From contig PFDI01000003.1 of assembly GCA_002772695.1 (NCBI GenBank), forward strand, positions 11,914 to 75,913: a stretch of 64,000 nt of DNA, written 5' to 3'. Position 1 is the stretch's first letter, and each line of letters starts with the position of its first letter. The notes beneath the pieces are model-generated. The model was given only the letters and a program-made list of their open reading frames with translations. It was not told the DNA's origin and did no database searches. The DNA is from Candidatus Pacebacteria bacterium CG10_big_fil_rev_8_21_14_0_10_44_54. Its GTDB lineage: Bacteria; Patescibacteriota; Microgenomatia; UBA1400; PJMF01. The translations under genes and the position numbers were made by a program. Shown piece after piece: positions 10,116 to 27,360 of this stretch.

Positions 10116-10149
10116 ACAGATATTCTAACGTATTAGAAAAGGTAAAACT

Positions 10150-10377
10150 ATGCCCGTAGTTGAAATTAAGAATGCATCTTTTGAGCTACTTATGGAAATA
10201 TACACCCAAGAGCTTCGGCGCCTACTTAGTTCAGAAGGAAATAACATCGACCCAGATTACATTGCCTCCATGCTAGAACGTTCACGATTGGAACAACATC
10301 AAAAAATGTTACTGCATCTAGAACTGGAAAAAAAATTACCGGAATTGCGTAAAGCAGCAAATCAAAATAGCACTTGA
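10150..10377 (+). CDS. hypothetical small helical protein (75 aa)
   Basis: ORF only. Its stop overlaps the start of the next gene. Confidence 0.3.
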   Translation: MPVVEIKNASFELLMEIYTQELRRLLSSEGNNIDPDYIASMLERSRLEQHQKMLLHLELEKKLPELRKAANQNST

Positions 10378-11876
10378 ACTCTACACTCTCTATAATGGAG
10401 TTCGTGCAATCATTTCTTAATCGTTCACGCTTGTTATTGCTACTAATTTTGGCGCTTGCGATACTTCTCCGCCTCCCACACCTCTCTGGCTCATTCTGGC
10501 TCGACGAAGCCGCCCAAGCACTCGAAAGCACACGGCCACTGTCGCAACAACTCGATATAGTGGCAGACTTTCAACCACCGCTGCTACACCTCATTACGCA
10601 TGTGGCTAGTTATGCATCGCACACCGAGTGGTGGCTAAGAACCGCCGGCGCACTAGTTCCTGGCTTGCTGACGATTGCGATCTTGTACTTATTTCTAGAG
10701 CGTGCCGCAAACAAAAAAACGGCGACGATTGCTGCAGCTCTACTTGCTACCTCCTCACTACACATCTATTTTTCTCAAGAATTGCGTCCGTACTCACTGC
10801 CTACCTTGTTTGCTGTTGCATCATGGTGGGCACTGTACGAGCAGCGTTGGCGCTGGTTTACCACCCTCACAATAGCAGGCCTCTACAGCTCATACCTTTA
10901 CCCATTTTTACTGATAGCACAGACAATTTGGTTACTACTAAATACAAAAAAATATAAGCAACTTGTCGTCTCCCTAGTAATCAGCACAGCCTGTTTTATT
11001 CCATGGCTGCCAACCTTTTTTGCACAGTTGCAAGCAGGGCAACTCCTTCGCAATGAACTGCCTGGTTGGGAAAGTACTGTCAGCATTTCACAAGAAAAAG
11101 CACTACAGTTGGTGATGGGGAAGTTTATTTTCGGCCTGAGCGATCTTTCTTTTTCTCTACCATATCTTGCTACTGGCTCGTTTGTCGTACTAAGCTTGAT
11201 TAGTTTGCTATTGTTTTCCTGGCAAAAAAAGGTAAAAAGGCAGCAAAAAGTACTCATGTTACTGCTATTCTGGGCAGGAGCACCACTTGCATTTGCTTGG
11301 CTGGCATCTTGGTTTGTGCCCGTAGTTGAGCCCAAGCGACTCTTACTCTCGCTCGCTGGATTTTATGGTCTAGCCAGCTATCTATTTGTACTTTCACTGC
11401 CGCAAAAAAATGCGATAGCAAAAAAACTCGCTACACTGCTTATTGCTATGCTATTTATTATAAATATCTCGAGTACTATCAGATATTTTATCGACAAATC
11501 ATTCCAACGAGAAGACTGGCGTGGAATCATTCGCAAAATAGAACAAACTTATCCGGCACAAAACACGATTGCTGTCTTTATTTTCCCCGAAGCTTTTGCT
11601 CCTTGGCTTTGGTATGCCTCTCCAGATATTACTACCATCAGTACAAAAGCAATCTATGTTGACAACACCACGCCGCTTCGTGATTTGCTTGAGCCAACAC
11701 TTGACTACGACTACATACTTATGTTTGACTACTTACAAGATCTCACCGACCCCAATCGATTGGTAGCAGCTGAGCTACAAAAGTTTGGTTTTGAGGAAAC
11801 TGGCTCGTTTTCTGCGCCAAACGTAGGTTTTGCCAGAATTTTTAGTAAACAAAATACCGCTGTAGATCAAGGATAG
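10374..11876 (+). CDS. GT-C family glycosyltransferase, PMT_2/ArnT-like (GT39/GT83-like) polytopic membrane protein
   Basis: LLLLILALAILLRLPHLSGSFWLDEAAQALES (the DE..A loop after TM1 is typical of PMT_2/ArnT), followed by multiple TM helices and a soluble C-terminal domain. Confidence 0.7.
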   Translation: MNSTLSIMEFVQSFLNRSRLLLLLILALAILLRLPHLSGSFWLDEAAQALESTRPLSQQLDIVADFQPPLLHLITHVASYASHTEWWLRTAGALVPGLLTIAILYLFLERAANKKTATIAAALLATSSLHIYFSQELRPYSLPTLFAVASWWALYEQRWRWFTTLTIAGLYSSYLYPFLLIAQTIWLLLNTKKYKQLVVSLVISTACFIPWLPTFFAQLQAGQLLRNELPGWESTVSISQEKALQLVMGKFIFGLSDLSFSLPYLATGSFVVLSLISLLLFSWQKKVKRQQKVLMLLLFWAGAPLAFAWLASWFVPVVEPKRLLLSLAGFYGLASYLFVLSLPQKNAIAKKLATLLIAMLFIINISSTIRYFIDKSFQREDWRGIIRKIEQTYPAQNTIAVFIFPEAFAPWLWYASPDITTISTKAIYVDNTTPLRDLLEPTLDYDYILMFDYLQDLTDPNRLVAAELQKFGFEETGSFSAPNVGFARIFSKQNTAVDQG

Positions 11877-11881
11877 CTGAC

Positions 11882-13036: not shown

Positions 13037-13042
13037 TAAATC

Positions 13043-14209
13043 ATGGCTACCTACCGCATAGCAATAGACGGCAATGAGGCTAATGTAGTCGATCGTGTTG
13101 GCAGCAACACTTATGCGTATGAACTACTGGTCGCGCTCGAGCAACAACTTGCCAAACAAGCAAATTGGCAGATCACAGTTCTGCTCACACAGCATCCATG
13201 CAGCGACATGCCGCTAGAGCGTCCTGGCTGGAAGTATGTTGTAGTTCGACCAAAACAATTCTGGACACAATGGGCGCTGCCTCGTTTTTTGTATCAGCAC
13301 CGAAGTAATTTTGATTTGTTTTTTACACCCGGCCATTACGCTCCCCGACACGCTCCGTTACCCTATATTTCTGCGGTACTAGACCTTGCCTTTCTTTCGC
13401 ACCCCGATTCTTTCACACTGCGCGACAGACTGCAGCTCTCCTACTGGACTAAGTACAGCGTTAAAAACGCCAAAAAAATCATAACTATTAGCCATGCAAG
13501 TAAAACAGAAATTGCTGCTACATATAAAATTCCTCCAGAAAACATAGCTGTTTGTTATCCAGCTATTGGCATAATCCAAAAACCAACTTTGCAAGAAGCG
13601 GCCAAAGATCTCAAAAAATTTGCTATTACAAAGCCATTCTTTATTTCTCTTGGAACAATTCAGCCGAGAAAAAACCTCATTAAACTAATTGAAGCTTTCG
13701 AAAGCTACTCACGAAAACAACAAGGTCTAGCCAAACAAACAAAGGCAAAACAACATAACTTAGTACTAGCGGGCAAGGAAGGCTGGCTGGCAGCACCAAT
13801 TCTCAAGCGTATTGCAGCATCTCCATTCAAAGAATTGATTATAGTGACTGGTTTCATCACAACAAAAGAAAAATGGTCGCTACTTCGCTCGGCTACTGCT
13901 GTTGTCATTGTCGGACTGAAAGAAGGTTTTGGCATACCTGCACTCGAGGCACTCGAAGCAAACACAATTCCTGTTGTCGCCAATGCGGCAAGTTTGCCAG
14001 AAGTAGTCGGCGAGTCAGGAATTTTGGTAGATCCACACAACACTCTAGATATAGCCGATGGTTTGTGGAAGGCTGCAACGCTCAAAGCGCGGGAAAAAGC
14101 TGTGCTCAAAAAAAAGGGAAGAGAACAAAAAACTCTCTTCAGTTGGAAAAACACCGCTCAACATGTACAGGATCTCTGGCAAAGTGTGCTCACAAAGAAA
14201 CAAGTGTGA
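13043..14209 (+). CDS. glycosyltransferase family 4
   Basis: KEGFGIPALEALEANTIPVVANAASLPEVVGESGILVDP. Confidence 0.8.
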   Translation: MATYRIAIDGNEANVVDRVGSNTYAYELLVALEQQLAKQANWQITVLLTQHPCSDMPLERPGWKYVVVRPKQFWTQWALPRFLYQHRSNFDLFFTPGHYAPRHAPLPYISAVLDLAFLSHPDSFTLRDRLQLSYWTKYSVKNAKKIITISHASKTEIAATYKIPPENIAVCYPAIGIIQKPTLQEAAKDLKKFAITKPFFISLGTIQPRKNLIKLIEAFESYSRKQQGLAKQTKAKQHNLVLAGKEGWLAAPILKRIAASPFKELIIVTGFITTKEKWSLLRSATAVVIVGLKEGFGIPALEALEANTIPVVANAASLPEVVGESGILVDPHNTLDIADGLWKAATLKAREKAVLKKKGREQKTLFSWKNTAQHVQDLWQSVLTKKQV

Positions 14210-14691
14210 TAACAATTCTCGCTATTGACCCAGGATATGACCGTCTCGGTTGGGCAGTTGTATCGGTCGACGACCGCAAGCTTTTACTGCGAGCATACAA
14301 CTGTATTGTGACTGATCGAGCCAAAAACTTGGCCGAAAGAATTCAACAAATCACTACCGAGCTTGAAGAAATAATTGCGAGTCAACAGCCGCAAGAACTT
14401 GCCATCGAAACACTCATTTTTGCTCGTAACACAACTACTGCACTCAAAGTAAGTGAGGTGCGTGGAGCAATTATCGCCACAGCAAATACCCATAACTTAG
14501 TAATTCACCAGTACAATCCTGGTACTATTAAGCTAGCTATCGCAGGGCATGGCAAAGCTGATAAGCGAGCAGTTGATAAAATGTTGCGCCTGCTCATACC
14601 AGATATAGGCAAAGTACTGCACGATGATACAATGGATGCAATCGCAATCGCAGTAACTCACGCGCTTGCAGTTCACCATCTGCAACTCTGA
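14206..14691 (+). CDS. ruvC: crossover junction endodeoxyribonuclease RuvC
   Basis: ITILAIDPGYDRLGWAVV...ETLIFARNTTTALKVSEVRGAII...DAIAIAVTHA. The GTG start is embedded in the upstream stop (GTGA). The track ORF 13873-14691 is an upstream extension of this frame that overlaps the preceding GT4 gene. Confidence 0.85.
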   Translation: MITILAIDPGYDRLGWAVVSVDDRKLLLRAYNCIVTDRAKNLAERIQQITTELEEIIASQQPQELAIETLIFARNTTTALKVSEVRGAIIATANTHNLVIHQYNPGTIKLAIAGHGKADKRAVDKMLRLLIPDIGKVLHDDTMDAIAIAVTHALAVHHLQL

Positions 14692-14693
14692 TT

Positions 14694-15269
14694 ATGATCG
14701 CATTTCTTACTGGCACACTCCATCAAGTCGGGACTCCACTCATCCTTCTGGTTGGCGGTGTCGGCTATAGTGTACGAGTAGCAGAAAAACATCAATCTCT
14801 CTGGAGCGTTGGTCAAAATTTATCACTGTGGATCCATACCCACGTTGCCGAGACAAAGTTTGAGTTATTCGGTTTTCCAGACCAAAAAGAGAAGGAACTA
14901 TTTTTACTTTTACTCCAAGTGTCTGGAGTAGGCCCAAGCACTGCCTTGCAGTTGGGGGCGATCGGAAGTGAAAAAATCTCACAGGCGGTTCGCGACGGGG
15001 CTGTGCGCACATTTACTCAAGTTCCTCGGGTGGGAAAGAAATTAGCACAAAAAATAATCATAGAGCTTGGCAGCAAGCTTGGGGCAATAGAAGAACTACA
15101 ACTAGGTACACTCGATACTGATCGCGCACTACTGCTCGAGGCTCTGCTTTCACTTGGATATGAAGAACAACGTGTATACGACGTAGTCCGCAAAACAAAT
15201 ATGGACAACCAAACGCTGGAGCAAGCACTCAAACAAACCATGCAAACAATTGGAACAACGAAAACATGA
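14694..15269 (+). CDS. ruvA: Holliday junction DNA helicase RuvA
   Basis: MIAFLTGTL...LLVGGVGYSV...ELFLLLLQVSGVGPSTAL. Confidence 0.85.
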   Translation: MIAFLTGTLHQVGTPLILLVGGVGYSVRVAEKHQSLWSVGQNLSLWIHTHVAETKFELFGFPDQKEKELFLLLLQVSGVGPSTALQLGAIGSEKISQAVRDGAVRTFTQVPRVGKKLAQKIIIELGSKLGAIEELQLGTLDTDRALLLEALLSLGYEEQRVYDVVRKTNMDNQTLEQALKQTMQTIGTTKT

Positions 15270-16258
15270 CACAAGCTCCTTCCCAATTACAAACACCAGA
15301 AGAAGTAGAGCTTTTTTCTAACCTGAGAGCACAAACATGGGCTGAATTTTATGGTCAAGACACGGTCAAAAAATCTCTTACCATTGCGATAGAAGCTGCG
15401 CGCAATCGAGCCGAACCACTTGATCACTTACTGCTATATGGGCCCCCAGGTCTTGGCAAAACGACACTTTGCCACTTGATTGCCAGTGAACTCAACGTAC
15501 AAACCAAAATTACTTCTGGCACGGCCTTGACAAAGGTCGGGGATTTGGCTGCCATTATTACCAATCTTAACCCAGGCGACATCTTGTTTATTGATGAAAT
15601 TCACCGCTTGCCAAAAGCTGTAGAAGAAACTCTGTACCCTGCCATGGAGGATTACGCACTAGATGTAGTCATTGGCAAAGGACCAACAGCCCGATCTATC
15701 CGACTTGATTTACCCAAGTTTACACTTGTTGGTGCTACCACAAAATTTGGCTTGCTATCTGGTCCATTTCGAGATCGGTTTGGCATTATTCATCGTCTTT
15801 CTTACTATAAATCACTCGCATTACAAACAATCTTGATGCGTTCGGCAGAAAAACTCCATGTTAGACTGCGTGAATCTGGCGCTATTGCGATCGCACAACG
15901 CTCTAGAGGCACCCCTCGAATTGCTCTCAAATTACTGAAACGAGTGCGAGATTATCTCGAAGTACACAACCAAACCGAAATTTCTGGTGAGCTTGTACAA
16001 AAAGCACTTGATCTTTTTGAAATTGATCAGTTGGGTCTTGATGATAGCGACCGACGTCTTATTGAGCTCATCATTGGCAAACACCAAGGTGGTCCGGTAG
16101 GACTAAGTACGCTTGCGGCGGCGTTAAATGAAGATACTGTCACAATCGAGGAAGTGATTGAACCATACCTCATGCAGATTGGTTTTCTCAAACGAACCAC
16201 ACAGGGCAGAATGACGACAGAAGCTGCCAAAAAGCACCTCAACAACTCAAATGCTTAG
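15266..16258 (+). CDS. ruvB: Holliday junction DNA helicase RuvB
   Basis: LLYGPPGLGKTTL (Walker A), ILFIDEIHRL (Walker B) and a C-terminal winged-helix domain. Confidence 0.95.
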   Translation: MTQAPSQLQTPEEVELFSNLRAQTWAEFYGQDTVKKSLTIAIEAARNRAEPLDHLLLYGPPGLGKTTLCHLIASELNVQTKITSGTALTKVGDLAAIITNLNPGDILFIDEIHRLPKAVEETLYPAMEDYALDVVIGKGPTARSIRLDLPKFTLVGATTKFGLLSGPFRDRFGIIHRLSYYKSLALQTILMRSAEKLHVRLRESGAIAIAQRSRGTPRIALKLLKRVRDYLEVHNQTEISGELVQKALDLFEIDQLGLDDSDRRLIELIIGKHQGGPVGLSTLAAALNEDTVTIEEVIEPYLMQIGFLKRTTQGRMTTEAAKKHLNNSNA

Positions 16259-16277
16259 GCGTATACTGAGGGCAACT

Positions 16278-16862
16278 ATGACTGTTTGGCAAAAAATCCA
16301 ACGTCGAATCACTACAATTTGGCTCGAACTAGCAACTGGGTTTTTGTGGTGGGGCGTTGGCGTAGTCCCACTACATCACGTCCGACGATTCTTTTATCGC
16401 TTGTTTGGTATGCAAATCGGATCAGGCTCGACACTTCATATGGGAGCGCGTATCTACGATCCACGACATATTTATATTGGAAAAGACAGCATAATCGGAG
16501 AAAAAGTTACACTCGATGGGAGAAGACAACTAGAAAACTCACGAGGTGGTATCACCATCGGCGACCATGTTGATATTGCTTCGGAAGTCATGATCTGGAC
16601 AAGTGAGCATGATATTTCCAGCACTGACTTTGCCCCTATTGAAGAGCCTGTGACGATTGGTGATTATGTATTTATTGGTCCTCGGGCAATCATTTTGCCA
16701 GGAGTAACAATTGCTCATGGTGCGGTGATTGCTGCGGGAGCAGTCGTAACCAAAGATGTGGCGGCACACAGTATTGTCGGTGGTGTCCCTGCCAAAGCAA
16801 TTGGACAGAGAGCACAAAACAACTTGCAGTACCGCTTGGGTAGGGCCCGTTGGTTCCAATAA
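16278..16862 (+). CDS. left-handed beta-helix (hexapeptide repeat) acetyltransferase, WcaF/LacA-like
   Basis: IGDHVDIASEVMIWTSEHD...IGDYVFIGPRAIILPGVTIAHGAVIAAGAVVTKDV. The start is taken at the internal ATG that follows a TATACT -10. Confidence 0.75.
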   Translation: MTVWQKIQRRITTIWLELATGFLWWGVGVVPLHHVRRFFYRLFGMQIGSGSTLHMGARIYDPRHIYIGKDSIIGEKVTLDGRRQLENSRGGITIGDHVDIASEVMIWTSEHDISSTDFAPIEEPVTIGDYVFIGPRAIILPGVTIAHGAVIAAGAVVTKDVAAHSIVGGVPAKAIGQRAQNNLQYRLGRARWFQ

Positions 16863-16867
16863 ATTCC

Positions 16868-17764
16868 ATGCGCGTTTCAATTCTCATCGTCTCGTACAAT
16901 ACAAAAGAGCTCACCCTGCAAACCTTGCAGAGCGTTATTGCCTCACTTTCTCAATCAATCCTGTTGCAAAACAATTCAGAAATTATTGTCGTTGACAACA
17001 ACTCGAGAGATGAAAGTCTCGCAGCAATCAAACAGCTTGCAACAGCTTCTGCTATCCCAATTACGCTGCTGGCAAATACCAAAAATACCGGCTTTGCCCA
17101 TGCCAACAACCTCGCTATCGCCAAAGCTACTGGCAAGGTGCTTCTGCTACTTAATTCAGACACGCTCGTGCCACAAGGTGCGATTACTCGCCTCTATGAG
17201 AGACTCATGCAATCTGATTCCAAGCATCTGGGTATTCTTGCTGCTAACCTACGCAACCTTGATGGTAGTCCACAACCGCAGGGTGGAGCGCTACCAAACC
17301 TCATAACGCTCACCAATCATATGCTGATGCTTGATGACTTACCGCTCATCGGAAAATTTCTGCCATCTACCCAAAATCAAAAATTTCAAGGTTGGGTAGC
17401 TGCTACCGCCATGGCAATTAAAAAGTCAGTTATCGATGAAATCGGAACACTCGACGAAAATATCTTTATGTACGGAGAAGATGTAGAGTTTTGTCTGCGC
17501 GCTCGGCACCACCACTGGGATGTAGCAATTTCACCTGACGCAGTAATCACTCACATCCAAGCTGCAAGCTCCAACCAGAAAAATGCAGTACTCGGAGAAA
17601 TCAAAGGCTATCAATACATTTGGGCAAAGCATATGCCACTTTGGCAGCGGCCGGTTGTTAACACCATACTTCGCCTGGGCATACTACTTCGCTGGCTGCT
17701 ATTTGCTACAATAGGCAGGACAGAGCAATCCCGACTGTATCGCAGTCTCTTGTCTCAGGTCTAA
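16868..17764 (+). CDS. glycosyltransferase family 2
   Basis: MRVSILIVSYNTKELT...IIVVDNNSRDESL...LLLNSDTLV...YGEDVEFCLR. Confidence 0.8.
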   Translation: MRVSILIVSYNTKELTLQTLQSVIASLSQSILLQNNSEIIVVDNNSRDESLAAIKQLATASAIPITLLANTKNTGFAHANNLAIAKATGKVLLLLNSDTLVPQGAITRLYERLMQSDSKHLGILAANLRNLDGSPQPQGGALPNLITLTNHMLMLDDLPLIGKFLPSTQNQKFQGWVAATAMAIKKSVIDEIGTLDENIFMYGEDVEFCLRARHHHWDVAISPDAVITHIQAASSNQKNAVLGEIKGYQYIWAKHMPLWQRPVVNTILRLGILLRWLLFATIGRTEQSRLYRSLLSQV

Positions 17765-17768
17765 CTGT

Positions 17769-19391
17769 ATGCCTACCTCCAAAACAATCCTTGGCTGGAT
17801 CGATCACAATCTCTTACTTGTTCTCAGTGGATTCTTGCTCGCGTTTATCCCACTCTATCCCAAGTTACCACTGTTTGACTTGATTCCAGGTTATCTCGTG
17901 CGAGTTCGAGTAGAAGATATTTTTATAGCACTTACTATACTTTTTTGGCTCATCCAGTTAGCCAGAAAAAAAGTAACCTGGAAAATTCCCATAGCAAAAT
18001 TGCTTGGTCTGTATTTGCTGGCAGGATTTGCTTCGTTACTCAGTGCAGTGTTTATTACCAAAACCATTCCTTTTGAGGTTCTGCATCTAGGCAAATCTGT
18101 CTTGCATTTACTAAGATATCTCGAATACTTCGCACTTTTCTTTATCATTTTTTCAAGTATAAAAACAAAGCATCACTTGCGCATTTTACTGCTGACCGGC
18201 TTCATAACGCTCTTGGCTGTGGCCGCCTATGGTGTCGGACAACGCTACTTCTACTGGCCAGTCTACTCGACCATGAATAGAGAGTTTAGCAAAGGACTCA
18301 GACTCTACCTCACCCCACATGCACGAGTACAATCAACTTTTGGCGGTCATTATGATCTTGGAGGCTACCTCGTCATCACCCTACCATTTGTCCTAGCCGC
18401 CCTATATAGCTTCACAAAGAAAAAAGAAAAAATTGCGCTCTTTGTTTTATTTTACTTTGGTATCTGGTTGATTACTGTCTCTGCCTCACGAGCCTCATTT
18501 GGTTCACTCTTGCTTGCTTTACTCATAGTTGTACTACTTTTTGCGATCCAGAAAAAAACCTGGCTAAAGAGGACAACCTGGTTTTTCCGCCAGACAAGCC
18601 TACTCACACTTGGAACGTCGGTCGTGCTCGTGTTCTTTGGTCAAGATATGTACGAGAGATTACTACAAATTTTGGATGGTTATCCTCTGGCTCACACAGC
18701 GTATGAGCAAGTAGATACAAAGAGAAAAGAATTTCTGCATTTTCTACCTCAGTTTCAAGTCGAAAAACCAGAAAACGCGCTTTCAACAGAAGAAGCAGCG
18801 GTTATGGTAGCTTCGGATACACGACCAACACCCCAAAGACCAAGTGACGTTTATGTTAATGTTCCCGACCATAAATTAGTCGCTACGGTGTCGGCAGAGG
18901 GGATCGAGTCTATGATACTAGTAGAGGTTGAGCGAACATACTCACAAAATGCGCTCGAGCGAGGACTTTCGCTCGCTATTCGTCTTGATACACTTTGGCC
19001 ACAAGCAATTGCCGGGTTTCAAAAAAACCCACTACTTGGTACGGGATACGCCACGCTAACCAAGGAGAGTGTTCAGCAATTTACCGAAGCCGAAAGCACT
19101 GATAACAACTATTTACGAACACTCGGCGAAACAGGCCTTGCTGGTTTTCTATTCTTTTACGGTAGCATTATCACCGCACTCTGGCTCTCATTGCGCACGC
19201 TACGACGTGTAGACCAACAACTCGCCCCAATCGAAAAAATTATCCTTGTTGGTTTTATTGCTGGCTCAATTGGCTTGCTACTCAATGCTACCTATATTGA
19301 TGTATTTGTAGCTTCCAAAATAGCCTACATATTTTGGGCAAATACGGGTATGGCAATGGCAGTTTACCTCTGGTATCATAATGAAAAATAA
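17769..19391 (+). CDS. Wzy_C family membrane protein (O-antigen ligase / O-oligosaccharyltransferase-like), paralog of the N-terminal domain of the 6001-9141 product
   Basis: FIPLYPKLPLFDLIPGYLVRVRVEDI, STMNREFSKG, IRLDTLWPQAIAGFQKNPLLGTGYATL and STDNNYLRTLGETGLAGF. Confidence 0.75.
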   Translation: MPTSKTILGWIDHNLLLVLSGFLLAFIPLYPKLPLFDLIPGYLVRVRVEDIFIALTILFWLIQLARKKVTWKIPIAKLLGLYLLAGFASLLSAVFITKTIPFEVLHLGKSVLHLLRYLEYFALFFIIFSSIKTKHHLRILLLTGFITLLAVAAYGVGQRYFYWPVYSTMNREFSKGLRLYLTPHARVQSTFGGHYDLGGYLVITLPFVLAALYSFTKKKEKIALFVLFYFGIWLITVSASRASFGSLLLALLIVVLLFAIQKKTWLKRTTWFFRQTSLLTLGTSVVLVFFGQDMYERLLQILDGYPLAHTAYEQVDTKRKEFLHFLPQFQVEKPENALSTEEAAVMVASDTRPTPQRPSDVYVNVPDHKLVATVSAEGIESMILVEVERTYSQNALERGLSLAIRLDTLWPQAIAGFQKNPLLGTGYATLTKESVQQFTEAESTDNNYLRTLGETGLAGFLFFYGSIITALWLSLRTLRRVDQQLAPIEKIILVGFIAGSIGLLLNATYIDVFVASKIAYIFWANTGMAMAVYLWYHNEK

Positions 19392-20826
19392 CCTTCCCTT
19401 CCTCCTGATAATCAGCACCGCTTTTTTGCTCAGATTGCCACACATCACTAGTCCCGTGCTTGATTGGCACAGCTTCAGACAAGCAGATACGGCCTCAGTG
19501 ACGTACGAGTATGTGAGAAATGGCGTCGATCTCTTACATCCAAAGTTTCATGATTTTTCCAACATTGCTTCTGGCAAAGACAATCTTGCTGGCTATCGTA
19601 TGGTCGAGTTTCCTTGGATTAATGGCTTGTTAGCCAGCATACTGCGGTTTGCTCCGAATCTTTCACTCGTGGTACTCAGCAGAGGTTTTACCATCGCGCT
19701 TTCACTGGTCACGCTCAGCAGTTTGTATTTTTTTGTCAAACTATTTTCAGACAAAAAAACTGCGCTGCTTGCCGCAATGACTTTCGCAGTTTTGCCATAT
19801 GCGGTTTTTTATAGTCGAGTTATCTTGCCAGACCCTGTTATGATAGCCCTGGCAACTGCATCGGTGACTCTTTTTGCCTACTGGCTGCACTCGAGACACT
19901 GGCGTTACTATGCTGCTTCTTTCTTGCTACTCGCTCTTGCCGCACTTACGAAGCCGTTTGTTCTGTTTTTGGCACCTGTGTACGTATCTTTGTTATTCGT
20001 TCAGTTTCTAAAAAAAAAGCTAGTATGGCAGCAAGTTTTTTGGACTATGATGCTACCAAGCAGCTTGCTGCCGCTGTGGTGGTGGCGAGATTGGATTTTG
20101 CAATTTCCCTCAGGTATTCCTGCCTCAGACTGGCTCTACAATGGTCCTATTAATGAAGTGCCTCCGCGTCTGCGACCAGTCTGGTTTCGCTGGCTCTGGT
20201 ACGAGCGATTATCTAAGTTAATCCTAGGGTATACCGGTACTGTGCTGCTGATACCACTTCTCCTGCGTTGGAAAAAAATCTCTACGCCAGAATTGTTCGT
20301 GTATGGCTCTTGGTGGTTGAGTGTCCTGCTTTTTTTTGTCGTTATAGCCCGGGGTAACATCCAGCACGATTACTATCAAGTTTTTACCCTACCAATAATT
20401 TGCATCTCTGTCGCAAAAGGAGTCAGGCTGCTATTTGCGTGGCTACAACACAAACTACACAAAAAAATTGCCATTACACTGACTGTCGCTCTGTATCTTT
20501 CAATGCTATTGCTCTCCCTACAACAAGTTGTCGGCTACTACCAAATCAATCACTGGGAGTATTATCGAGTTGGACAACGAGCACAAGCAGTGTTGCCAGA
20601 AGAAGCTATTGTTGTGGCACCTGCTTTTGGCGACACCTCATTCCTCTTTCAAACACGCCGCCGCGGCTGGCCAATTGGCTTCGAAATTGAAAAAAAAGTT
20701 GCAGCTGGCGCCCAATACTACATCACGACGACTTATGATGATGAAGCAAAAACGCTAGAATCAACTTATGAGTTAATCGAAAAAACACCAGAGTATCTTA
20801 TTTTAAATTTACAGAATACCTTATGA
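19381..20826 (+). CDS. GT-C family glycosyltransferase, PMT_2/ArnT-like polytopic membrane protein
   Basis: LRLPHITSPVLDWHSFRQADTASVTYEY (PMT-like loop) and about 11 TM helices. Confidence 0.7.
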   Translation: MKNNLPFLLIISTAFLLRLPHITSPVLDWHSFRQADTASVTYEYVRNGVDLLHPKFHDFSNIASGKDNLAGYRMVEFPWINGLLASILRFAPNLSLVVLSRGFTIALSLVTLSSLYFFVKLFSDKKTALLAAMTFAVLPYAVFYSRVILPDPVMIALATASVTLFAYWLHSRHWRYYAASFLLLALAALTKPFVLFLAPVYVSLLFVQFLKKKLVWQQVFWTMMLPSSLLPLWWWRDWILQFPSGIPASDWLYNGPINEVPPRLRPVWFRWLWYERLSKLILGYTGTVLLIPLLLRWKKISTPELFVYGSWWLSVLLFFVVIARGNIQHDYYQVFTLPIICISVAKGVRLLFAWLQHKLHKKIAITLTVALYLSMLLLSLQQVVGYYQINHWEYYRVGQRAQAVLPEEAIVVAPAFGDTSFLFQTRRRGWPIGFEIEKKVAAGAQYYITTTYDDEAKTLESTYELIEKTPEYLILNLQNTL

Positions 20827-22028
20827 AAATCCTCATGTTAACGCCATATTTACCGTATCCGCTCTTATCGGGTGGGCAAATTCGGACCTACAACCTACTC
20901 AAACAGCTCAGTGAAAAACATCAAGTAACCCTATTTTCTCTGATTAAAGATACAGAAGAAACAAAACATATTCCAGAATTACTCAAGTTTTGTGAAGATG
21001 TCAGGGTATTTCGTAGGTCAAAAACTCCGTTCACCCTGAGAAATATTGCAAAAACAGCAATCTCTACACACCCGTTTCTTGTTGTTCGCAATTATGTAGC
21101 AGAGGTTACTCAAGCAATTGAGCAAGAACTCAAAAGAACCAAATTTGATCTTTTGCACGCGGAAACCTTTTATATGATGCCACATCTACCCCAGACTAAA
21201 ACTCCAATCATTTTGGTTGAACAGACCATTGAGTATCTTGGGTACGAAAGCTATGCAAAGCAAGCTTTTCCCCTGCTACGACCACTCCTGCATATTGACA
21301 TTGCCAAAATTAAACGTTGGGAGAAGTACTACTGGGGTAGAGCAGACCAGCTTATTGTAATGAGTGAGCAAGACAAAGACTTTATTCACCAAAGCACCAG
21401 CGTACAAAACGATATCGCAGTAGTAGCAAATGGAGTTGATGCAGATTGGTTTAGCCAAAAACCAAAGTTGCAACATACTGATCCAACCGTCTTGTTTGTT
21501 GGCACTTTTAAGTGGTTACCAAACAGGGAGGCCGTGCGCTTTCTTGTTCACGAGATTTGGCCTCACATCCGAAAAAAAATTCCGACAGCCAAACTACACA
21601 TTGTTGGTAACGCACCAACCAAAGAAATTCTCAATTTTGAAAACGAGTACCCCAACGTCGTAGTTAAAGGCAGGGTAGAGGACATTAGAGACGCATTTGC
21701 GGTTGCGGATGTTTTGGTTGCACCTGTTTTCAGTGGCAAAGGTACCCGCTACAAAGTACTAGAAGCGATGGCTTCGGGCACACCACTTGTAGCGACACCA
21801 ACCGCTGTAGAAGGTCTCAACCTAGAAGAAAATGCTCATGTTCGGATTGGCAAAACAGGCAAAGAACTTGCCAAACAAACTGTGATGCTACTCAAATCCA
21901 AAATACTGCGCAGAAAACTAGCACAAGCAAGCAAACAATTTGTCCAGAAGCACTATGACTGGCAGAGTATTTCACAGCAACTTGATATAATTTATCGCCG
22001 GATAGGAGCGAGTAATGCAACAAAATAA
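20823..22028 (+). CDS. glycosyltransferase family 4
   Basis: MKILMLTPYLPYPLLSGGQIRTYNLL...FSGKGTRYKVLEAMASGTPLVATPTAVEGL. Confidence 0.8.
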   Translation: MKILMLTPYLPYPLLSGGQIRTYNLLKQLSEKHQVTLFSLIKDTEETKHIPELLKFCEDVRVFRRSKTPFTLRNIAKTAISTHPFLVVRNYVAEVTQAIEQELKRTKFDLLHAETFYMMPHLPQTKTPIILVEQTIEYLGYESYAKQAFPLLRPLLHIDIAKIKRWEKYYWGRADQLIVMSEQDKDFIHQSTSVQNDIAVVANGVDADWFSQKPKLQHTDPTVLFVGTFKWLPNREAVRFLVHEIWPHIRKKIPTAKLHIVGNAPTKEILNFENEYPNVVVKGRVEDIRDAFAVADVLVAPVFSGKGTRYKVLEAMASGTPLVATPTAVEGLNLEENAHVRIGKTGKELAKQTVMLLKSKILRRKLAQASKQFVQKHYDWQSISQQLDIIYRRIGASNATK

Positions 22029-22893
22029 GCCTGATTTAGAACTGATTTTTCTCAATTTTAATAGTGATTTCTGGATTGAAAAGGCACTAACTTCACTGCA
22101 AACCTTTTATCTAAAAAAAACCAAGTTGCAGGTCGCCATCACTGTTGTTGATAACAACAGCAGTGACAACTCACTACAGACGGTAGCAACCTGTTGCCCT
22201 AAGGCAAAAATTATTCGTCTCAAAGAAAATCTGGGTTTTGCTGGAGCTAATAATGCCGCCCTAACTCAGACGACGGCAAGATACACCATGCTGCTCAACT
22301 CGGATGTTGAACTAACAGCAGACTCAAATTTTGACGAACTTGTCTCATATATGGATACACACAAAAATGTTGCTGTTATAACACCCAAACTAACATTCTT
22401 TTCTGGCGCACTCGACCCTGCTTCACACCGTGGAGAGCCAACCATCTGGGCTTCAATCGCCTATTTTGCTCGACTCGAGCAATTATTTCCAAACTCAAAA
22501 CGATTTGCACAGTATCATCAAACATATAAAGATCTATCACAAATTCATGAGATAGACGCCTGTTCTGGTGCAGCACTACTGTCGCGCACCTCTCTTTATA
22601 ATAAAGTTGGTTTGCTAGATGATCGTTTTTTTATGTATGCCGAGGATCTTGATTGGTGTCGTCGTTTCAGAGAAGCGGGGTACTCGGTTGTATTTTATCC
22701 ACACGTTGCGCTGATTCACCATAAATATAAGTCTGGCATCAAAAATTCATCACAAAATATTGCTCAAAAAACCCAGTTTCACTTTTATAACACCATGCTA
22801 CAATACTACGACAAACACTATGCCAAAGAGTATCCATCTGTGGTACGCTGGTTGCTTAAGTATTTTATCGCGTTTAAGAAAGGCGGACTATGA
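22015..22893 (+). CDS. glycosyltransferase family 2
   Basis: VVDNNSSDNSL...MLLNSDVEL...YAEDLDWCRR. Confidence 0.8.
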   Translation: MQQNKPDLELIFLNFNSDFWIEKALTSLQTFYLKKTKLQVAITVVDNNSSDNSLQTVATCCPKAKIIRLKENLGFAGANNAALTQTTARYTMLLNSDVELTADSNFDELVSYMDTHKNVAVITPKLTFFSGALDPASHRGEPTIWASIAYFARLEQLFPNSKRFAQYHQTYKDLSQIHEIDACSGAALLSRTSLYNKVGLLDDRFFMYAEDLDWCRRFREAGYSVVFYPHVALIHHKYKSGIKNSSQNIAQKTQFHFYNTMLQYYDKHYAKEYPSVVRWLLKYFIAFKKGGL

Positions 22894-23327
22894 ACACCCA
22901 AACACTGCAATTTAAGATTGAAAATCTTAGAGCCACAACAATACAACGCACGCTCGAGGGCCTCTTTACTGTTGTCGCAAGCTTGTTTGTGACGGCCTTG
23001 CTGCCATCTTTGTTGATTAAATACTTCTATGCTAACGCTCAATTATTTGAACAACCAAAATTGCTCGAATATATCCCAGTTGCTACCTTTGCAATTTCTG
23101 GTGCCTACATCGTATTCGTAATCGTCGGCAACTTCTCGAGAGGAGCAAAAATTCGCCAAGCAGAATCTGAGCTAGCGCTCTCAGAGTCGATGACAGCTAA
23201 TGATCTCGGTACGACACAAGAGGAGCTGGCTGAGCTAGAAAAAATTGTTGACAACGCTCTAGCAAAACCAAATAAATCAAAACGCAGTAACACAAAAAAG
23301 TCGACTCGAAAAAAGAGCGCTAAGTAA
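22890..23327 (+). CDS. hypothetical small membrane protein (2 TM, basic C-terminal tail)
   Basis: ORF with two hydrophobic segments and a Lys/Arg/Ser-rich C-terminus, translationally coupled to the flanking GT genes. Confidence 0.4.
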   Translation: MNTQTLQFKIENLRATTIQRTLEGLFTVVASLFVTALLPSLLIKYFYANAQLFEQPKLLEYIPVATFAISGAYIVFVIVGNFSRGAKIRQAESELALSESMTANDLGTTQEELAELEKIVDNALAKPNKSKRSNTKKSTRKKSAK

Positions 23328-23331
23328 TCAG

Positions 23332-24429
23332 ATGCCTCGAGTTGGTATCGATTGCCGACTAGCAGGCCTCAATCACGCTGGAATTGGACGGTATATTTCT
23401 TGTCTTGTGCCTCGGGTTATTTCTTTACTCGAGAATAAAGCAGATATTGTACTTTTTTGTGCCACAAAGCAACAAGCTCATGAACTAAACCCAAATGAGT
23501 CAGCCTGGGTTGCGATAGTGCAAACACCGATCAAGCATTACTCGCTTGCCGAACAAACGCAATTTCTTGCTGTGCTGCGGCAACAATCACTCGATGTACT
23601 ACACGTCCCACACTTTAATGTACCGTTTTTCTATCGGGGAAAATTTGTCGTCACTATTCATGACTTGTTATGGCATGAGCAACGGGGGCTACATGTCACG
23701 ACACTCAAACCAATAATTTACTGGTTGAAGTATTTTTTTTATAGACACGTTGTTGCCAACACTATCGCGCGGGCAAAAACAATATTTGTACCGTCAAAAA
23801 CAATTGCCAATCAAGTGCTCAAAACATTTTCAGACGCTAAAAATAAAATAATTGTTACCTATGAAGGAGTAAGTGATGCTTTTGCAAAACCGAAATTCAT
23901 AGCTCAACGAAAAAAAAATACTTTACTCTACGTTGGCTCACTTTACCCACACAAAAACATACAACTTGTCCTGAAGCTGCTACAACGGCAACCAGAAATT
24001 CGGCTGGAAATTGTCACTGCACGATCTGCTTTTGTGACAAAAGTAAAAAAACGCATCGTTGCACTAGGACTCAAAAATCAAGTTATATTTTATATTTCAA
24101 TCACTGATCAAGAACTCGCCAAGAAATATCAACAAGCGACCGCACTTATTCAGCCCTCACTATCCGAAGGATTTGGTTTGACTGGTCTTGAAGCACTCCG
24201 TCAAGGAACGCCATTGCTCGCATCTGACATTCCTATCTTTCATGAGATTTACCAACAACAAGCTGTCTTTTTTGATCCACATAGCGTCAAATCTCTCCAA
24301 TCTGCCTGGGATTCAATCGAGAATAAAATGACACAACTGCAATTACCAAAACAATTTTTCGAAAAATACGATTGGGACAAGCTTGCAAAACAAACCACTG
24401 ATGTCTACCTCACCACACTCAAAAACTAA
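23332..24429 (+). CDS. glycosyltransferase family 4
   Basis: LSEGFGLTGLEALRQGTPLLASDIPIFHEIY. Confidence 0.8.
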   Translation: MPRVGIDCRLAGLNHAGIGRYISCLVPRVISLLENKADIVLFCATKQQAHELNPNESAWVAIVQTPIKHYSLAEQTQFLAVLRQQSLDVLHVPHFNVPFFYRGKFVVTIHDLLWHEQRGLHVTTLKPIIYWLKYFFYRHVVANTIARAKTIFVPSKTIANQVLKTFSDAKNKIIVTYEGVSDAFAKPKFIAQRKKNTLLYVGSLYPHKNIQLVLKLLQRQPEIRLEIVTARSAFVTKVKKRIVALGLKNQVIFYISITDQELAKKYQQATALIQPSLSEGFGLTGLEALRQGTPLLASDIPIFHEIYQQQAVFFDPHSVKSLQSAWDSIENKMTQLQLPKQFFEKYDWDKLAKQTTDVYLTTLKN

Positions 24430-25639
24430 ACCCAACGTTTGTCTCGTTTACGATAGAGTGACCACCAAGTATGGTGGAGCCGAGTGCCTTTTGCAGCACT
24501 TACTTGATCTTTTTCCAGCAGCACCACTCTACACAGCTGTTTATAATCCAAACAGAACACCTTGGGTAATACCAAGCAGGGTGAGATCTTCCTTTGCCAG
24601 TCGCTGGTGGTTTGTACGTAGGTGGTATCAATTTTTTTCTCCTATCTTTCCGCTTGTATTTGAACAGTTTGACTTGTCGACATTCGATATCATTATCTCG
24701 ATAAGCAGCGCAGAAGCAAAAGGAGTTCTTACTTCTCCCAAGCAACTACATATAAGCTATCTCTTCAGCCCACCAAAGTACCTTGCCAAGAATAACGCTG
24801 CCTATCTATATTCATATAAATTATTAACAATTCCTGCCATAAGATCACTGGCAGAACTACCACTTCGCTACCTTCGTTGGTGGGATCAAGCTGCTGCCGC
24901 TCGCCCTGATTACACCATTCCTATTTCAAATACAATTGCAAAACAGATAAGTGGTAGTTACACAAACATCATGCTGGAGCCCATCTATCCTCCTATTGCT
25001 GTACCACCGCTTAGCAAAATAAAACAGGCAATGAGACTCACAACAGCACAATACTTTCTATCACTTTCTCGCCTAGTCTGGTACAAGCGAGTAGACCTTG
25101 CAGTGAGTGTCGCACAAAAAACCGGAGACTTGCTACTCATTGCCGGTGAGGGAGTGATGAAGAAGCAGTTGCTGAAACAAGCAGATCGGCGTGGGGCAAT
25201 CCGCCAAAAAAATGAGCTTATTTCAGACTGCATAAGACGTGCGATCAAACATAATCGAAACATCATTTTTCTCAATACTGTATCTGAAAAAGAAAAAACA
25301 GCGCTCCTCACTCACGCTCAGGCAACCCTACAGTTGGGAAAAGAAGATTTCGGCATTGTAGCAATCGAAAGCCTCGGCCACGAAACTCCCGTCATACTAT
25401 TTGCAGATTCAGGTGCGGCGGAAGTACTTAGAAACAAACAAGTTGGAATACTCCTTGCATCGCAAAACACCAAGGCCCTTGAAAGGGCATTTTATGAAAT
25501 TAAAAAGATGACTTTTTCACCCTCATACTTGAGAAAATTAGCATTATCATTCTCTCCTGAAATATACAAAAGGAGGATGCAAAAAATAGTGTATGATGTA
25601 TGGGCTATTCACAAAAATGGACACAAAAATGACAAATAA
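24401..25639 (+). CDS. glycosyltransferase family 4-like
   Basis: N-terminal KYGGAECLL and C-terminal EDFGIVAIESLGHETPVILFADSGAAEV. The track start 24383 overlaps the upstream gene, so the internal Met is chosen. Confidence 0.55.
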   Translation: MSTSPHSKTKPNVCLVYDRVTTKYGGAECLLQHLLDLFPAAPLYTAVYNPNRTPWVIPSRVRSSFASRWWFVRRWYQFFSPIFPLVFEQFDLSTFDIIISISSAEAKGVLTSPKQLHISYLFSPPKYLAKNNAAYLYSYKLLTIPAIRSLAELPLRYLRWWDQAAAARPDYTIPISNTIAKQISGSYTNIMLEPIYPPIAVPPLSKIKQAMRLTTAQYFLSLSRLVWYKRVDLAVSVAQKTGDLLLIAGEGVMKKQLLKQADRRGAIRQKNELISDCIRRAIKHNRNIIFLNTVSEKEKTALLTHAQATLQLGKEDFGIVAIESLGHETPVILFADSGAAEVLRNKQVGILLASQNTKALERAFYEIKKMTFSPSYLRKLALSFSPEIYKRRMQKIVYDVWAIHKNGHKNDK

Positions 25640-26732: not shown

Positions 26733-26739
26733 GACTTTC

Positions 26740-27360
26740 ATGACGTATTTAGCTCAAAAGCGCCTTCTTGATCTTGCCGTTGCTCTCGGATTAAGTATGC
26801 TTTTTTTACCCGTCTGGTTGGTAGTGCCAGTTTTAATTTTTCTTGATTCAGGCAAACCTATTTTTTTTGTCCATAAACGAGTTGGCCTAAACGGTCGCGA
26901 ATTTTATCTCTACAAATTTCGCTCAATGATAATTGGTGCTGACGACATGCTGCACAAACACGACAAAAAATTACTCAGAGAATTTAAAAGCAACGACTGG
27001 AAAATTCCCAATGATCCCCGCATAACAAAGTTGGGAAAAATACTTCGCTCACTCACCATCGATGAGTTTCCACAGTTGCTCAATGTGTTGCGAGGCGAAA
27101 TGTCTATGGTTGGTCCTCGCGCTTATGTACGTAAAGAGCTCGATGAACAAAGCGAGCGATATCCCGAAACGAAATCATATATTACAAAAATTCTCAGTGT
27201 AAAGCCAGGTATTTCTGGACCCTGGCAAACCAGTGGTCGCAACGAGATCCCTTTTGCCCAACGAGCCAAGATGGATGCGCAGTATGCAAGCAATCCTTCT
27301 ATCTGGCGAGACATTCTTATTTTACTCAAGACACCTGGAGCTATGATTTCAAAGTGGTGA
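26740..27360 (+). CDS. small monotopic phosphoglycosyl transferase (bacterial sugar transferase family, PglC/WbaP C-terminal-like); initiating enzyme
   Basis: FFVHKRVGLNGREFYLYKFRSM...DEFPQLLNVLRGEMSMVGPRA. At 206 aa it has a single N-terminal TM segment. Confidence 0.85.
   Translation: MTYLAQKRLLDLAVALGLSMLFLPVWLVVPVLIFLDSGKPIFFVHKRVGLNGREFYLYKFRSMIIGADDMLHKHDKKLLREFKSNDWKIPNDPRITKLGKILRSLTIDEFPQLLNVLRGEMSMVGPRAYVRKELDEQSERYPETKSYITKILSVKPGISGPWQTSGRNEIPFAQRAKMDAQYASNPSIWRDILILLKTPGAMISKW

Follow-up and report, generated by a model that had tools for sequence, protein, structure and literature searches.

Probable promoter sharing between ruvCAB and a glycosyltransferase operon in Pacebacteria-like Microgenomates

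A ruvC-ruvA-ruvB trio among glycan genes

The window analyzed here is a stretch of 64,000 nt of DNA from Candidatus Pacebacteria bacterium CG10_big_fil_rev_8_21_14_0_10_44_54. Between positions 10374 and 32168, it carries 21 co-directional genes with every gap ≤40 nt, and the same array contains ruvCAB, the glycan genes surrounding it, the dcw cluster, and recO (Table 1). As originally predicted, Pfam and NCBIfam searches place ruvCAB inside glycan genes, with two GT4 glycosyltransferase genes upstream and genes for a sugar O-acetyltransferase (AcT), a GT2 glycosyltransferase, and a Wzy_C protein downstream. The order after AcT is GT2, Wzy_C, PMT_2, GT4, GT2, an unknown protein of 145 aa, GT4, GT4, a ManC-like nucleotidyltransferase, and Bac_transf, the initiating transferase and last gene of what we call unit 2.

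Table 1. Positions of genes, junctions, and candidate promoters in the window
Feature	Position	Strand	Basis and remarks
Candidate promoter P1, -10 box TATAAT	10391..10396	+	7 nt 5' of in-frame GTG 10404; predicted from sequence
PMT_2 GT-C family membrane glycosyltransferase, opens unit 1	10374..11876	+	Pfam PF13231; orthologs in relatives
GT4 glycosyltransferase, 384 aa	11882..13036	+	Pfam PF00534/PF13439; orthologs 43-83% identical in relatives
GT4_388 glycosyltransferase, 388 aa	13043..14209	+	Pfam; stop overlaps ruvC start
GTGA junction, ruvC GTG nested in GT4_388 stop TGA	14206..14209	+	Sequence; junction compared across relatives
ruvC, Holliday-junction resolvase, 161 aa	14206..14691	+	PF02075, TIGR00228
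ruvA, 191 aa	14694..15269	+	TIGR00084; RuvA_N and HHH_5
ruvB, 330 aa	15266..16258	+	NF000868, TIGR00635; ATGA overlap with ruvA stop
Candidate promoter P2	16239..16267	+	-35-like TCAACA, 17-nt spacer, -10 TATACT; consensus scan and enrichment in relatives
WcaF-like hexapeptide sugar O-acetyltransferase (AcT), opens unit 2	16278..16862	+	Pfam Hexapep; alternative start ATG 16251
Remainder of unit 2, GT2 through Bac_transf	16868..27360	+	Pfam; gene order kept in relatives

All three Ruv proteins are intact. RuvC matches PF02075 with 117.8 bits (cut-off of 22.2) over residues 4-152 of 161 and, in the NCBIfam profile search, TIGR00228 with 104.9 bits (cut-off of 100.65), its score of 136.4 for NF000711 being under the cut-off of 163. 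Alignment to 1HJR shows that its catalytic acidic tetrad, D8, E68, D141, and D144, corresponds to E. coli D7, E66, D138, and D141. RuvA scores 146.1 bits for TIGR00084 (cut-off of 85), contains the Pfam domains RuvA_N and HHH_5, and aligns through residues 1-188 with residues 1-194 of M. tuberculosis RuvA (2H5X), including the C-terminal domain III, so that the OB domain, the two HhH motifs, and the RuvB-binding domain III are all present. RuvB scores 469.5 for NF000868 (cut-off of 282) and 435.5 for TIGR00635 (cut-off of 299), and its translation contains Walker A (GPPGLGKTT), Walker B (FIDEIH), RDRFG, and RGTPRIA, with the AAA+ motif set of Walker A, Walker B, arginine finger, and sensor 2 intact. 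The trio is a canonical branch-migration and resolution module that is predicted to be functional.

Two further open reading frames were rejected. A 272-aa frame that begins at ATG 13873 and is in phase with ruvC has an extension that is absent from relatives and is attributed to chance, and a 75-aa frame heading the array (10150-10377) has no tblastn match in any of the loci compared and no Pfam match and is probably no gene. An Rfam scan of the whole window returned only three tRNAs at 60221-60594, with no match near ruvCAB.

Gene junctions and candidate promoters

The ruvC start codon is a GTG (14206-14208) nested in the stop TGA of GT4_388 (14207-14209), in frame and as originally predicted, even though the start had been assigned to 14204, an out-of-frame GTG; the trio spans 14206 to 16258. 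The same junction reads ATGA in the three closest relatives. Across relatives, in which start codons were placed using homology with the proteins of the window, leaving some error in gap sizes, the gap from GT4 to ruvC has a median of -4 nt, with an overlap in 30/50, ≤20 nt in 44/50, and a maximum of 137 nt. The expectation that the other ruv starts would also overlap upstream stops holds for ruvB, whose ATG at 15266 forms an ATGA with the ruvA stop, but not for ruvA, whose ATG at 14694 follows the ruvC stop TGA (14689-14691) after a 2-nt spacer.

Shine-Dalgarno motifs are absent before ruvC, ruvA, and ruvB, but since such motifs are rare throughout the window this absence is not discriminating alone. 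The predicted RNA fold of the GT4/ruvC junction has no special structure (z-score of 0.51). A -10-like box at the usual position precedes ruvC in only 4 of 46 distinct upstream regions, against a background of 95/596, and no promoter-type hexamer is enriched in these regions. For ruvA, such a box is found in 23/51 relatives, where a spacer exists, and some relatives have insertions at ruvC|ruvA or ruvA|ruvB, either of genes on the opposite strand (dCMP deaminase) or of glycan genes. Cotranscription of ruvAB with the glycosyltransferase genes is therefore not obligatory throughout the lineage.

AcT, which matches the NCBIfam WcaF-like profile with a score under the cut-off, more likely starts at ATG 16278 than at the doubtful ATG 16251, because the former agrees with the public gene call and with a conserved TATACT box at 16262-16267. 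This start leaves a 19-nt spacer after ruvB. The original prediction that AcT and GT2/Wzy genes directly follow ruvB is thus right as to order, while an 8-nt overlap with ruvB exists only if ATG 16251 is used. The candidate promoter P2 consists of TCAACA (16239-16244) within the 3' end of ruvB and the TATACT box right after the ruvB stop. In relatives, TATACT is the most enriched hexamer upstream of AcT (35/75 versus 12/596, p=2e-27), conserved at 6-10 nt from its start, and 54/75 cases have a -10-like box at a distance of 4-15 nt from that start compared to 95/596 at other genes (p=5e-23), although these Fisher p-values overstate independence given that the loci are phylogenetically related and include several near-duplicates. 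Within the window, a P2-like box also precedes other gap-preceded genes (8/17 versus 3/38).

A TANNNT motif placed ∼10 bp upstream of the start codon is accepted as a sign of leaderless genes (PMC3160421). For PMT_2, alternative starts at 10395 or 10404 are possible, with GTG 10404 the likely true one; two relatives (L081 and L083) carry TATAAT/TATACT at the P1 offset before the GTG start of PMT_2, and many others have a -10-like box 7-13 nt upstream of this gene. We take these boxes as evidence that -10 boxes of the TATACT type, located 6-10 nt ahead of start codons, are in use in these genomes, a usage that would amount to a leaderless-like architecture.

The ruvB-to-AcT junction is the loosest of the block, with a median of 51 nt and 14/67 loci exceeding 500 nt. 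No terminator-like hairpin follows ruvB in the window or in the junctions of 38 distinct relatives, and a scan of 9000-28000 found none on the + strand within 11290-17733; the 36 terminator-like sites that it returned (18.5 expected) are dispersed, with most of them on the minus strand. A generic sigma-70 scan of the same region, with a consensus that may not be that of this phylum, gave 31 promoter-like sites versus 30.9 expected, including weak ones inside coding regions such as 14606-14633 before ruvA. At the sequence level, ruvC has no spacer, -10-like box, or terminator upstream, and ruvB is followed by TATACT with no terminator. The extreme compaction and coupling suggested originally are supported in part, by the gaps of ≤40 nt, the lack of a + strand terminator, and the conserved GT4/ruvC overlap, but the locus is probably not one seamless superoperon, as a conserved promoter-like box separates ruvB from AcT.

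Conservation in relatives and other lineages

Following the synteny comparison proposed with the original prediction, we found ruvCAB in the same position with conserved glycan flanks in ∼85 related loci, comprising 5 genomes (L001-L005) and 80 metagenome contigs (L081-L160). They share a 16-17-gene order (PMT2-GT4-GT4-ruvC-ruvA-ruvB-AcT-GT2-Wzy-PMT2-GT4-GT2...) at 40-89% protein identity. Where enough upstream DNA is available, the GT4_388 ortholog lies directly before ruvC in 48/48 relatives, and ruvA and ruvC are present at all 50 ruvB loci. ruvB lies upstream of AcT in 75/79 loci, and the GT2 ortholog follows AcT in 66/67. The four loci with no ruvB upstream of AcT within the short DNA available (L097, L107, L130, and L131) are not counted as counterexamples, since L107 has PMT_2-GT2-RmlD upstream of AcT, resembling glycan insertions in L004. 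Other insertions, found at ruvB|AcT and ruvC|ruvA in certain relatives, include a transposase (L113) and KilA-N and Bro-N genes of phage type. Synteny extends to the wider backbone, Bac_transf-DUF4012-RecO-GlyRS...MraZ, as would be expected if rearrangement is slow in general. The embedding of ruvCAB in glycan genes is far beyond chance. A literature search covering Pacebacteria, CPR, and Patescibacteria brought up no relevant report of the arrangement.

Distance matrices of the upstream half, ruvCAB, and the downstream half are concordant (Mantel r of 0.88-0.95, p=0.001). The comparison of GC and codon usage between the two halves, also proposed originally, revealed no break, with GC, GC3, and codon usage uniform over 10374-27360. 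Both flanks and ruvCAB have been inherited vertically together, and the layout is old. The discontinuity, patchy distribution, and discordant phylogeny expected of a horizontally acquired island or a recombination junction were not found.

Outside this lineage, the glycan-type embedding is absent around ruvB in 73/75 loci, with a GT-like neighbor in the remaining 2. In Levybacteria and Gottesmanbacteria, ruvCAB sits among unrelated housekeeping genes, and in the Levybacteria loci L010-L013 it has Wzy_C/DUF4012 as a neighbor. The ruvC-ruvA-ruvB trio itself occurs in 38/75 of these loci, including those of Firmicutes and other Microgenomates. The GT4-ruvC pairing is restricted to one Microgenomates lineage; the arrangement, originally called unusual, is so compared to other bacteria but is the norm within its own lineage.

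Proposed promoter sharing, its rivals, and known systems

We consider it likely that ruvCAB, lacking a promoter of its own, closes a glycosyltransferase operon of six genes and that the glycan operon after it is promoted separately, in an arrangement inherited vertically and explained by promoter sharing. The identities of the genes and the anatomy of their junctions are observed, as are the synteny throughout the lineage, the parallel divergence, and the enrichment of motifs; transcription start sites, cotranscription, and translational coupling we infer as follows. In an ancestor of Pacebacteria-like Microgenomates, ruvCAB would have become the distal part of the glycosyltransferase operon and been kept there vertically since. 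Transcription would most likely start at the leaderless-type promoter before PMT_2 and yield a unit 1 transcript containing PMT_2, GT4, GT4, ruvC, ruvA, and ruvB. ruvC, predicted to have neither its own promoter nor a ribosome-binding site, would probably be translated by ribosomes ending on GT4 and restarting at GTGA, with ruvB coupled to ruvA likewise via ATGA. The TATACT box would start the 11-gene unit from AcT to Bac_transf, to which read-through from unit 1 probably adds because there is no terminator in between. If ruvC expression depends on the upstream gene in this way, insertions or breaks at GT4|ruvC would be selected against. Promoter sharing in a small, compact genome would then be the best explanation of the association, with no biochemical link between glycans and recombination needed.

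Synteny conserved across such divergence could also reflect a true functional link, and gene-neighborhood methods usually take such conservation as functional association. Selection might keep ruvCAB in the glycan operon for coexpression with envelope glycan synthesis, for example, to track growth or division, which would make the locus one of few cases in which the dosage of DNA-repair genes is linked to envelope synthesis. We regard this as unlikely. The GT4-ruvC adjacency does persist at a mean protein p-distance of ∼0.45 and is uninterrupted in all relatives examined, while other junctions of the block are interrupted, and recO likewise adjoins the end of the glycan array, both in the window and in three divergent relatives. 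However, all loci are of a single origin and therefore count as one evolutionary event, no such link appears in the other Microgenomates or other phyla examined, several GT-GT junctions are equally uninterrupted, and ruvAB apparently has its own promoter in many relatives. We also know of no biochemistry linking RuvABC to glycosyltransferases.

It is similarly improbable that the genes are adjacent without being cotranscribed, with an unrecognized promoter inside GT4_388 driving ruvCAB and the overlap a by-product of compaction. The weak sigma-70-like sites within coding regions and the box before ruvA in relatives having a spacer are consistent with such a promoter, but the scarcity of boxes and the lack of an enriched hexamer before ruvC, together with the stop/start overlap being the majority state, argue against it. 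More doubtful still is a stronger form of coupling, in which, across a lineage of candidate-phylum rank, the only visible resolvase gene is tied to GT4 translation by termination-reinitiation and this is selected as repair must scale with glycan synthesis or growth; if true, it would represent a real regulatory coupling between surface biogenesis and DNA repair in ultrasmall bacteria with very few transcription factors.

A recombination seam at ruvCAB, originally suggested as the place where two halves of the island, both having a Wzy_C/GT-C module, came together, is very improbable, whether the halves evolved independently before joining or ruvCAB dropped in between them recently by rearrangement or horizontal transfer. 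In favor of a seam, a PMT_2 gene lies on either side of ruvCAB, the downstream Wzy_C has a paralog at 6001-9141 (40% identity over 512 aa), and the ruvB|AcT and ruvC|ruvA junctions tolerate insertions in some relatives. However, the two PMT_2 proteins share only 21% identity, and the Wzy_C paralog is located beyond the conserved block, on the upstream side of an epimerase gene, and is missing in many relatives. With the shared order, concordant distances, and uniform composition, a seam is unsupported and for recent events largely refuted, and any joining would predate the entire lineage with no detectable trace. In a paralogy test of the two halves, the Wzy_C pair was the only clearly paralogous one.

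Most likely, ruvCAB has an ordinary function in a lineage-specific, locked-in context. The main value of the locus is as a calibration case: a repair operon in a glycan island here represents an ancient gene string of Pacebacteria-like CPR bacteria and, given its ancient vertical inheritance, should not be taken for the edge of an island, a seam left by horizontal transfer, or a chimeric assembly. The 16-17-gene order can serve as a synteny marker for the lineage, and the predicted operon map (P1 to PMT_2-GT4-GT4-ruvCAB; P2 to AcT through Bac_transf) is testable. Leaderless-like boxes may aid the annotation of start codons and operons in genomes of uncultivated CPR bacteria; in the window, they go with corrected starts for AcT (16278), GT2 (16868), and probably PMT_2 (10404).

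Canonical ruv operons include E. coli ruvAB and ruvC and the Mycobacterium ruvC-ruvA-ruvB operon. The window trio has the same three proteins, domain architecture, catalytic residues, and ATPase motifs and shares with the trios of other lineages the gene order and overlapping or abutting cistrons. It differs in having no upstream intergenic region, in being stop/start-joined to GT4, and in being followed by a glycan operon. The usual neighbors in other bacteria, yebC upstream and queA/tgt/yajC downstream, are absent here, and a control region of the LexA/SOS type is not apparent. The locus also resembles the "uber-operons" of compact genomes, in which housekeeping genes of unrelated function stand under shared promoters, in its long co-directional array, minimal spacers, unrelated functions, and lineage-conserved order, although the GT4-ruvC pairing was not found in the searchable literature and belongs to one Microgenomates lineage only. 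The flanks contain the standard families of Wzx/Wzy-type or O-linked protein glycosylation clusters (Bac_transf, GT2/GT4, Wzy_C, O-acetyltransferase, and ManC). Whereas clusters of this kind generally vary and are often "islands" exchanged by horizontal transfer, the block in the window is core and vertically inherited, diverging in step with ruvCAB.

Gene content and starts of the ruv genes

Nearly all genes of the window lie on the + strand, and ruvCAB is embedded in a co-directional string of glycan genes, so the original prediction was right in its observation, although slightly off in its description. RuvC, RuvA and RuvB scored above the NCBIfam equivalog cut-offs (TIGR00228, 104.9/100.65; TIGR00084, 146.1/85; NF000868, 469.5/282). 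The RuvC acidic tetrad is kept (D8, E68, D141 and D144, aligned with E. coli D7, E66, D138 and D141), RuvA can be aligned over its full length with M. tuberculosis RuvA, domain III included, and the Walker A, Walker B, arginine-finger and sensor-2 motifs of RuvB are all intact. The three are canonical, ordinary genes. An identical RuvB is found on at least 15 contigs, assembly GCA_009991455.1 among them. A DUF4012 protein identical to that of the window is listed by NCBI under "Candidatus Pacebacteria bacterium", which places the organism in the Microgenomates group of CPR/Patescibacteria.

All three ruv genes had been described as translationally coupled through overlaps; the overlap is present at two of the three starts. 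The in-frame ruvC GTG at 14206 overlaps the TGA of the upstream GT4 gene (14207-14209), while a GTG at 14204, previously taken as the start, is out of the ruvC frame. In the closest relatives (L081, L083 and L091) this junction reads ATGA, and their RuvC N-termini align without offset. A 111-codon open ruvC frame 5' of the GTG (13873-14205, within GT4) has no such extension in relatives and appears to be due to chance. The ruvB start overlaps the ruvA stop (ATGA, 15266-15269), but ruvA does not overlap ruvC, because TT separates TGA 14689-14691 from ATG 14694. It is doubtful whether ruvB overlaps AcT, the WcaF-like hexapeptide sugar O-acetyltransferase gene, through ATG 16251; AcT begins at ATG 16278 in the public gene call, and a conserved -10-like box lies between the ruvB stop and this codon.

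Features of the window and insertions in related loci
Feature	Position	Strand	Remark
GT2, GT4, methyltransferase (- strand), unclassified protein, 1046-aa Wzy_C	765-9141		Pfam; glycan set
NAD-dependent epimerase	9147-10115	-	Pfam
PMT_2 (GT-C family membrane glycosyltransferase)	10374-11876	+	Pfam; opens co-directional string
GT4	11882-13036	+	Pfam
GT4	13043-14209	+	Pfam; directly 5' of ruvC
RuvC, RuvA, RuvB, in order	after GT4 13043-14209	+	Pfam
Hexapeptide acetyltransferase, GT2, Wzy_C, PMT_2, GT4, GT2, in order	3' of RuvB	+	Pfam
Unclassified 145-aa protein, GT4, GT4, ManC-like nucleotidyltransferase, Bac_transf	string end at 27360	+	Pfam
DUF4012, RecO, class-II aminoacyl-tRNA synthetase	3' of Bac_transf		Pfam
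MraZ/MraW, full dcw cluster to FtsZ, IleRS, RodA, ParB	after aminoacyl-tRNA synthetase		Pfam
TATACT (-10-like, P2)	16262-16267	+	3 nt after ruvB stop, 10 nt before ATG 16278
TCAACA (-35-like)	inside ruvB	+	17 nt upstream of TATACT
TATACT/TACAAT-type boxes	16262-16267, 27385-27390, 29938-29943, 48244-48249, 60649-60654, 61280-61285
TATACT/TACAAT-type boxes, minus-strand genes	before starts of 9147-10115 and 59743-60186
Unclassified gene and sulfatase-family gene	between ruvC and ruvA		L004, L134
GT2, methyltransferase, DegT, FdtA	between ruvB and AcT		L004
Opposite-strand ORF	between ruvA and ruvB		L101, L105, L111
rve transposase insert			L113
KilA-N insert			L158/L159
Bro-N insert			L155
Radical SAM insert			L134/L137
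Insert-bearing stretches	6383-9405, 10986-16683		L004
Insert-bearing stretches	2409-5410, 7020-9904		L134

Orthologs of the aminoacyl-tRNA synthetase in relatives bear a GlyRS-type Pfam domain. A second recombination gene, recO, attached 5 nt after DUF4012, closes the glycan array (stretch 27401-29925), and Bac_transf-DUF4012-RecO is kept in three divergent relatives (L164, L165 and L166). Within the dcw cluster, a CofD/YvcK-family gene (PF01933, 36868-37848) lies between two Mur ligase genes and overlaps each of them by 4 nt.

Conservation of the gene string in relatives

We retrieved 80 loci from one-genome-per-species contigs with RuvB as the query, and 80 metagenome loci from many environments with an alignment of AcT orthologs. 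The five best RuvB matches (66-68% identity; L001-L005, including Candidatus Pacebacteria GW2011_GWA1_46_10) all showed the same order, epimerase (- strand), PMT_2, GT4, GT4, RuvC, RuvA, RuvB and AcT, followed by GT2, Wzy_C, PMT_2, GT4, GT2, an unclassified gene, GT4 and GT4, and the 80 metagenome loci carry the same block. ruvB lies 5' of AcT in 75/79 loci with at least 300 nt of upstream DNA (the other four have short upstream DNA or an insertion), ruvA and ruvC are present in all 50 ruvB loci with sufficient DNA, the GT4 13043-14209 ortholog precedes ruvC in 48/48, and a GT2 ortholog follows AcT in 66 of 67. Protein identity to the window ranges from ∼35% to 89%, with mean pairwise p-distances of 0.42-0.50 over 32 complete blocks. 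Bac_transf-DUF4012-RecO-...-GlyRS-...-MraZ-MraW is also kept, with local insertions, in three divergent relatives. Several MAG records (L001, L002, L003, L006, L008, L011 and L013) belong to Patescibacteria/Microgenomates by gene content and RuvB similarity, yet bear the titles "uncultured Pseudomonadales" or "Gammaproteobacteria" and seem to be taxonomically mislabelled.

In some genomes the ruv junctions accept cargo. The opposite-strand ORF of L105 is a dCMP deaminase by Pfam, and BLAST groups the copies of L101 and L111 with it. No interruption of the GT4-to-ruvC junction was observed in the loci examined.

Junction spacing and a proposed two-unit expression model

With starts placed by homology, junction gaps over all loci had medians of -4 nt for GT4 to ruvC (n = 50; 30 overlaps, 44 at ≤20 nt, maximum 137), 35 nt for ruvC to ruvA (n = 52), 3 nt for ruvA to ruvB (n = 55) and 51 nt for ruvB to AcT (n = 67; 14 above 500 nt). 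GT4-to-ruvC is thus among the tightest junctions and ruvB-to-AcT the loosest of the whole block; the reading as extreme compaction and coupling held for the upstream side only.

We then counted -10-like hexamers in non-identical upstream sequences, taking those that match TATAAT at 5 or more of 6 positions, have A2 and T6, and end 4-15 nt before a start codon. They precede AcT in 54/75 cases versus 95/596 for other block genes, AcT and ruvA left out (Fisher p = 5e-23), and in an unbiased hexamer count TATACT was the word most enriched before AcT (35/75 versus 12/596, p = 2e-27). A box precedes ruvC in only 4/46 and ruvA in 23/51, almost all with a ruvC/ruvA spacer (three exceptions, with gaps of 3 nt or -4 nt); none was found before ruvA in the window's own sub-clade, where this gap is 2-3 nt. 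Neither the window nor the junctions of 38 distinct relatives have a terminator-like hairpin after ruvB.

The layout gcTATACT/TACAAT, ∼8-10 nt, ATG also precedes DUF4012, GlyRS, IleRS and other spacer-preceded genes of the window, and a box of this type lies 6-13 nt before the start in 8/17 genes with a spacer of at least 15 nt versus 3/38 tightly packed ones. The window has few Shine-Dalgarno motifs, and TANNNT ∼10 bp before the start codon is accepted as a mark of genes that are leaderless or have a short leader (PMC3160421). These features point to promoters that are mostly of the leaderless or short-leader type in this CPR genome. In many relatives a -10-like box stands 7-13 nt ahead of PMT_2; the window has TATAAT 10391-10396 before an in-frame GTG at 10404, matching L081 and L083, so that GTG 10404 (or ATG 10395) is a more likely PMT_2 start than TTG 10374. 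A 75-aa ORF at 10150-10377, with no homolog in the fetched loci and no Pfam match, is probably spurious.

The best-supported model, in which transcription and translation are read from sequence throughout, has two adjacent transcription units. The first would run from P1, a candidate promoter before PMT_2, through GT4, GT4, ruvC, ruvA and ruvB, and the second from P2, between ruvB and AcT, through Bac_transf, with read-through from the first probably added. ruvC would be a promoterless distal cistron, likely translated by termination-reinitiation at GTGA, and in the window's sub-clade ruvA and ruvB would depend on upstream genes as much as ruvC. Dependence on the upstream promoter can explain the conserved GT4/ruvC junction, with no need for a functional link, and the high general synteny of this genome region fits this explanation. 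Selected functional coupling of ruvCAB with the glycan genes is possible, but would rest on a single evolutionary origin.

Origin of the arrangement

The region had also been read as a recombination seam joining two island halves, each with a Wzy_C/GT-C module. GC, GC3 and codon usage stay level from the upstream half through ruvCAB to the downstream half, with no break between the halves, and match those of the housekeeping genes; the distance matrices of the three parts are concordant (Mantel r = 0.88, 0.95 and 0.88; each p = 0.001); rank correlations with the short ruvCAB set are lower (0.39-0.46), which is to be expected close to saturation. Identity between the two PMT_2 proteins is only 21%. 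The 540-aa Wzy_C of the block shares 40% identity over 512 aa with the N-terminal half of the 1046-aa Wzy_C, and this larger paralog sits 5' of the epimerase, in a stretch that varies among relatives. A seam is thus not supported, and ruvCAB bears no mark of a junction between two recently joined pieces.

GT2, GT4 and the minus-strand methyltransferase at 765-4350 have a GC of 0.37-0.40 versus 0.42-0.46 in the rest of the window; since the region 5' of the epimerase differs among relatives, the part of the glycan locus that truly varies or can be exchanged may lie here. An unannotated 560-aa protein 5' of the 1046-aa Wzy_C (the pair spans 4305-9141) shows 38% identity over 112 aa to Wzy_C residues 500-607.

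The ruvCAB context is a lineage-specific conserved gene string, and we found no such string with ruvCAB in a glycan context in the searchable literature. The association is absent outside this lineage, where just 2/75 ruvB loci had a GT-like match within 10 kb. In Levybacteria DUF4012 lies 3-5 kb upstream of ruvC (L010-L013), with Wzy_C and RNase H ahead of it in L011, so that ruvCAB may have stood loosely near envelope-glycan genes before the Pacebacteria arrangement arose. ruvCAB is compact both in Levybacteria (Wzy_C-RNaseH-DUF4012-aaRS-TPR-L25(-)-ruvCAB-RidA) and in Gottesmanbacteria (RF-ZIP-Fur-YibE/F-ruvCAB-DsbA); the compact trio therefore predates its position within the glycan block, and this position is a derived trait that the Pacebacteria-like lineage shares.
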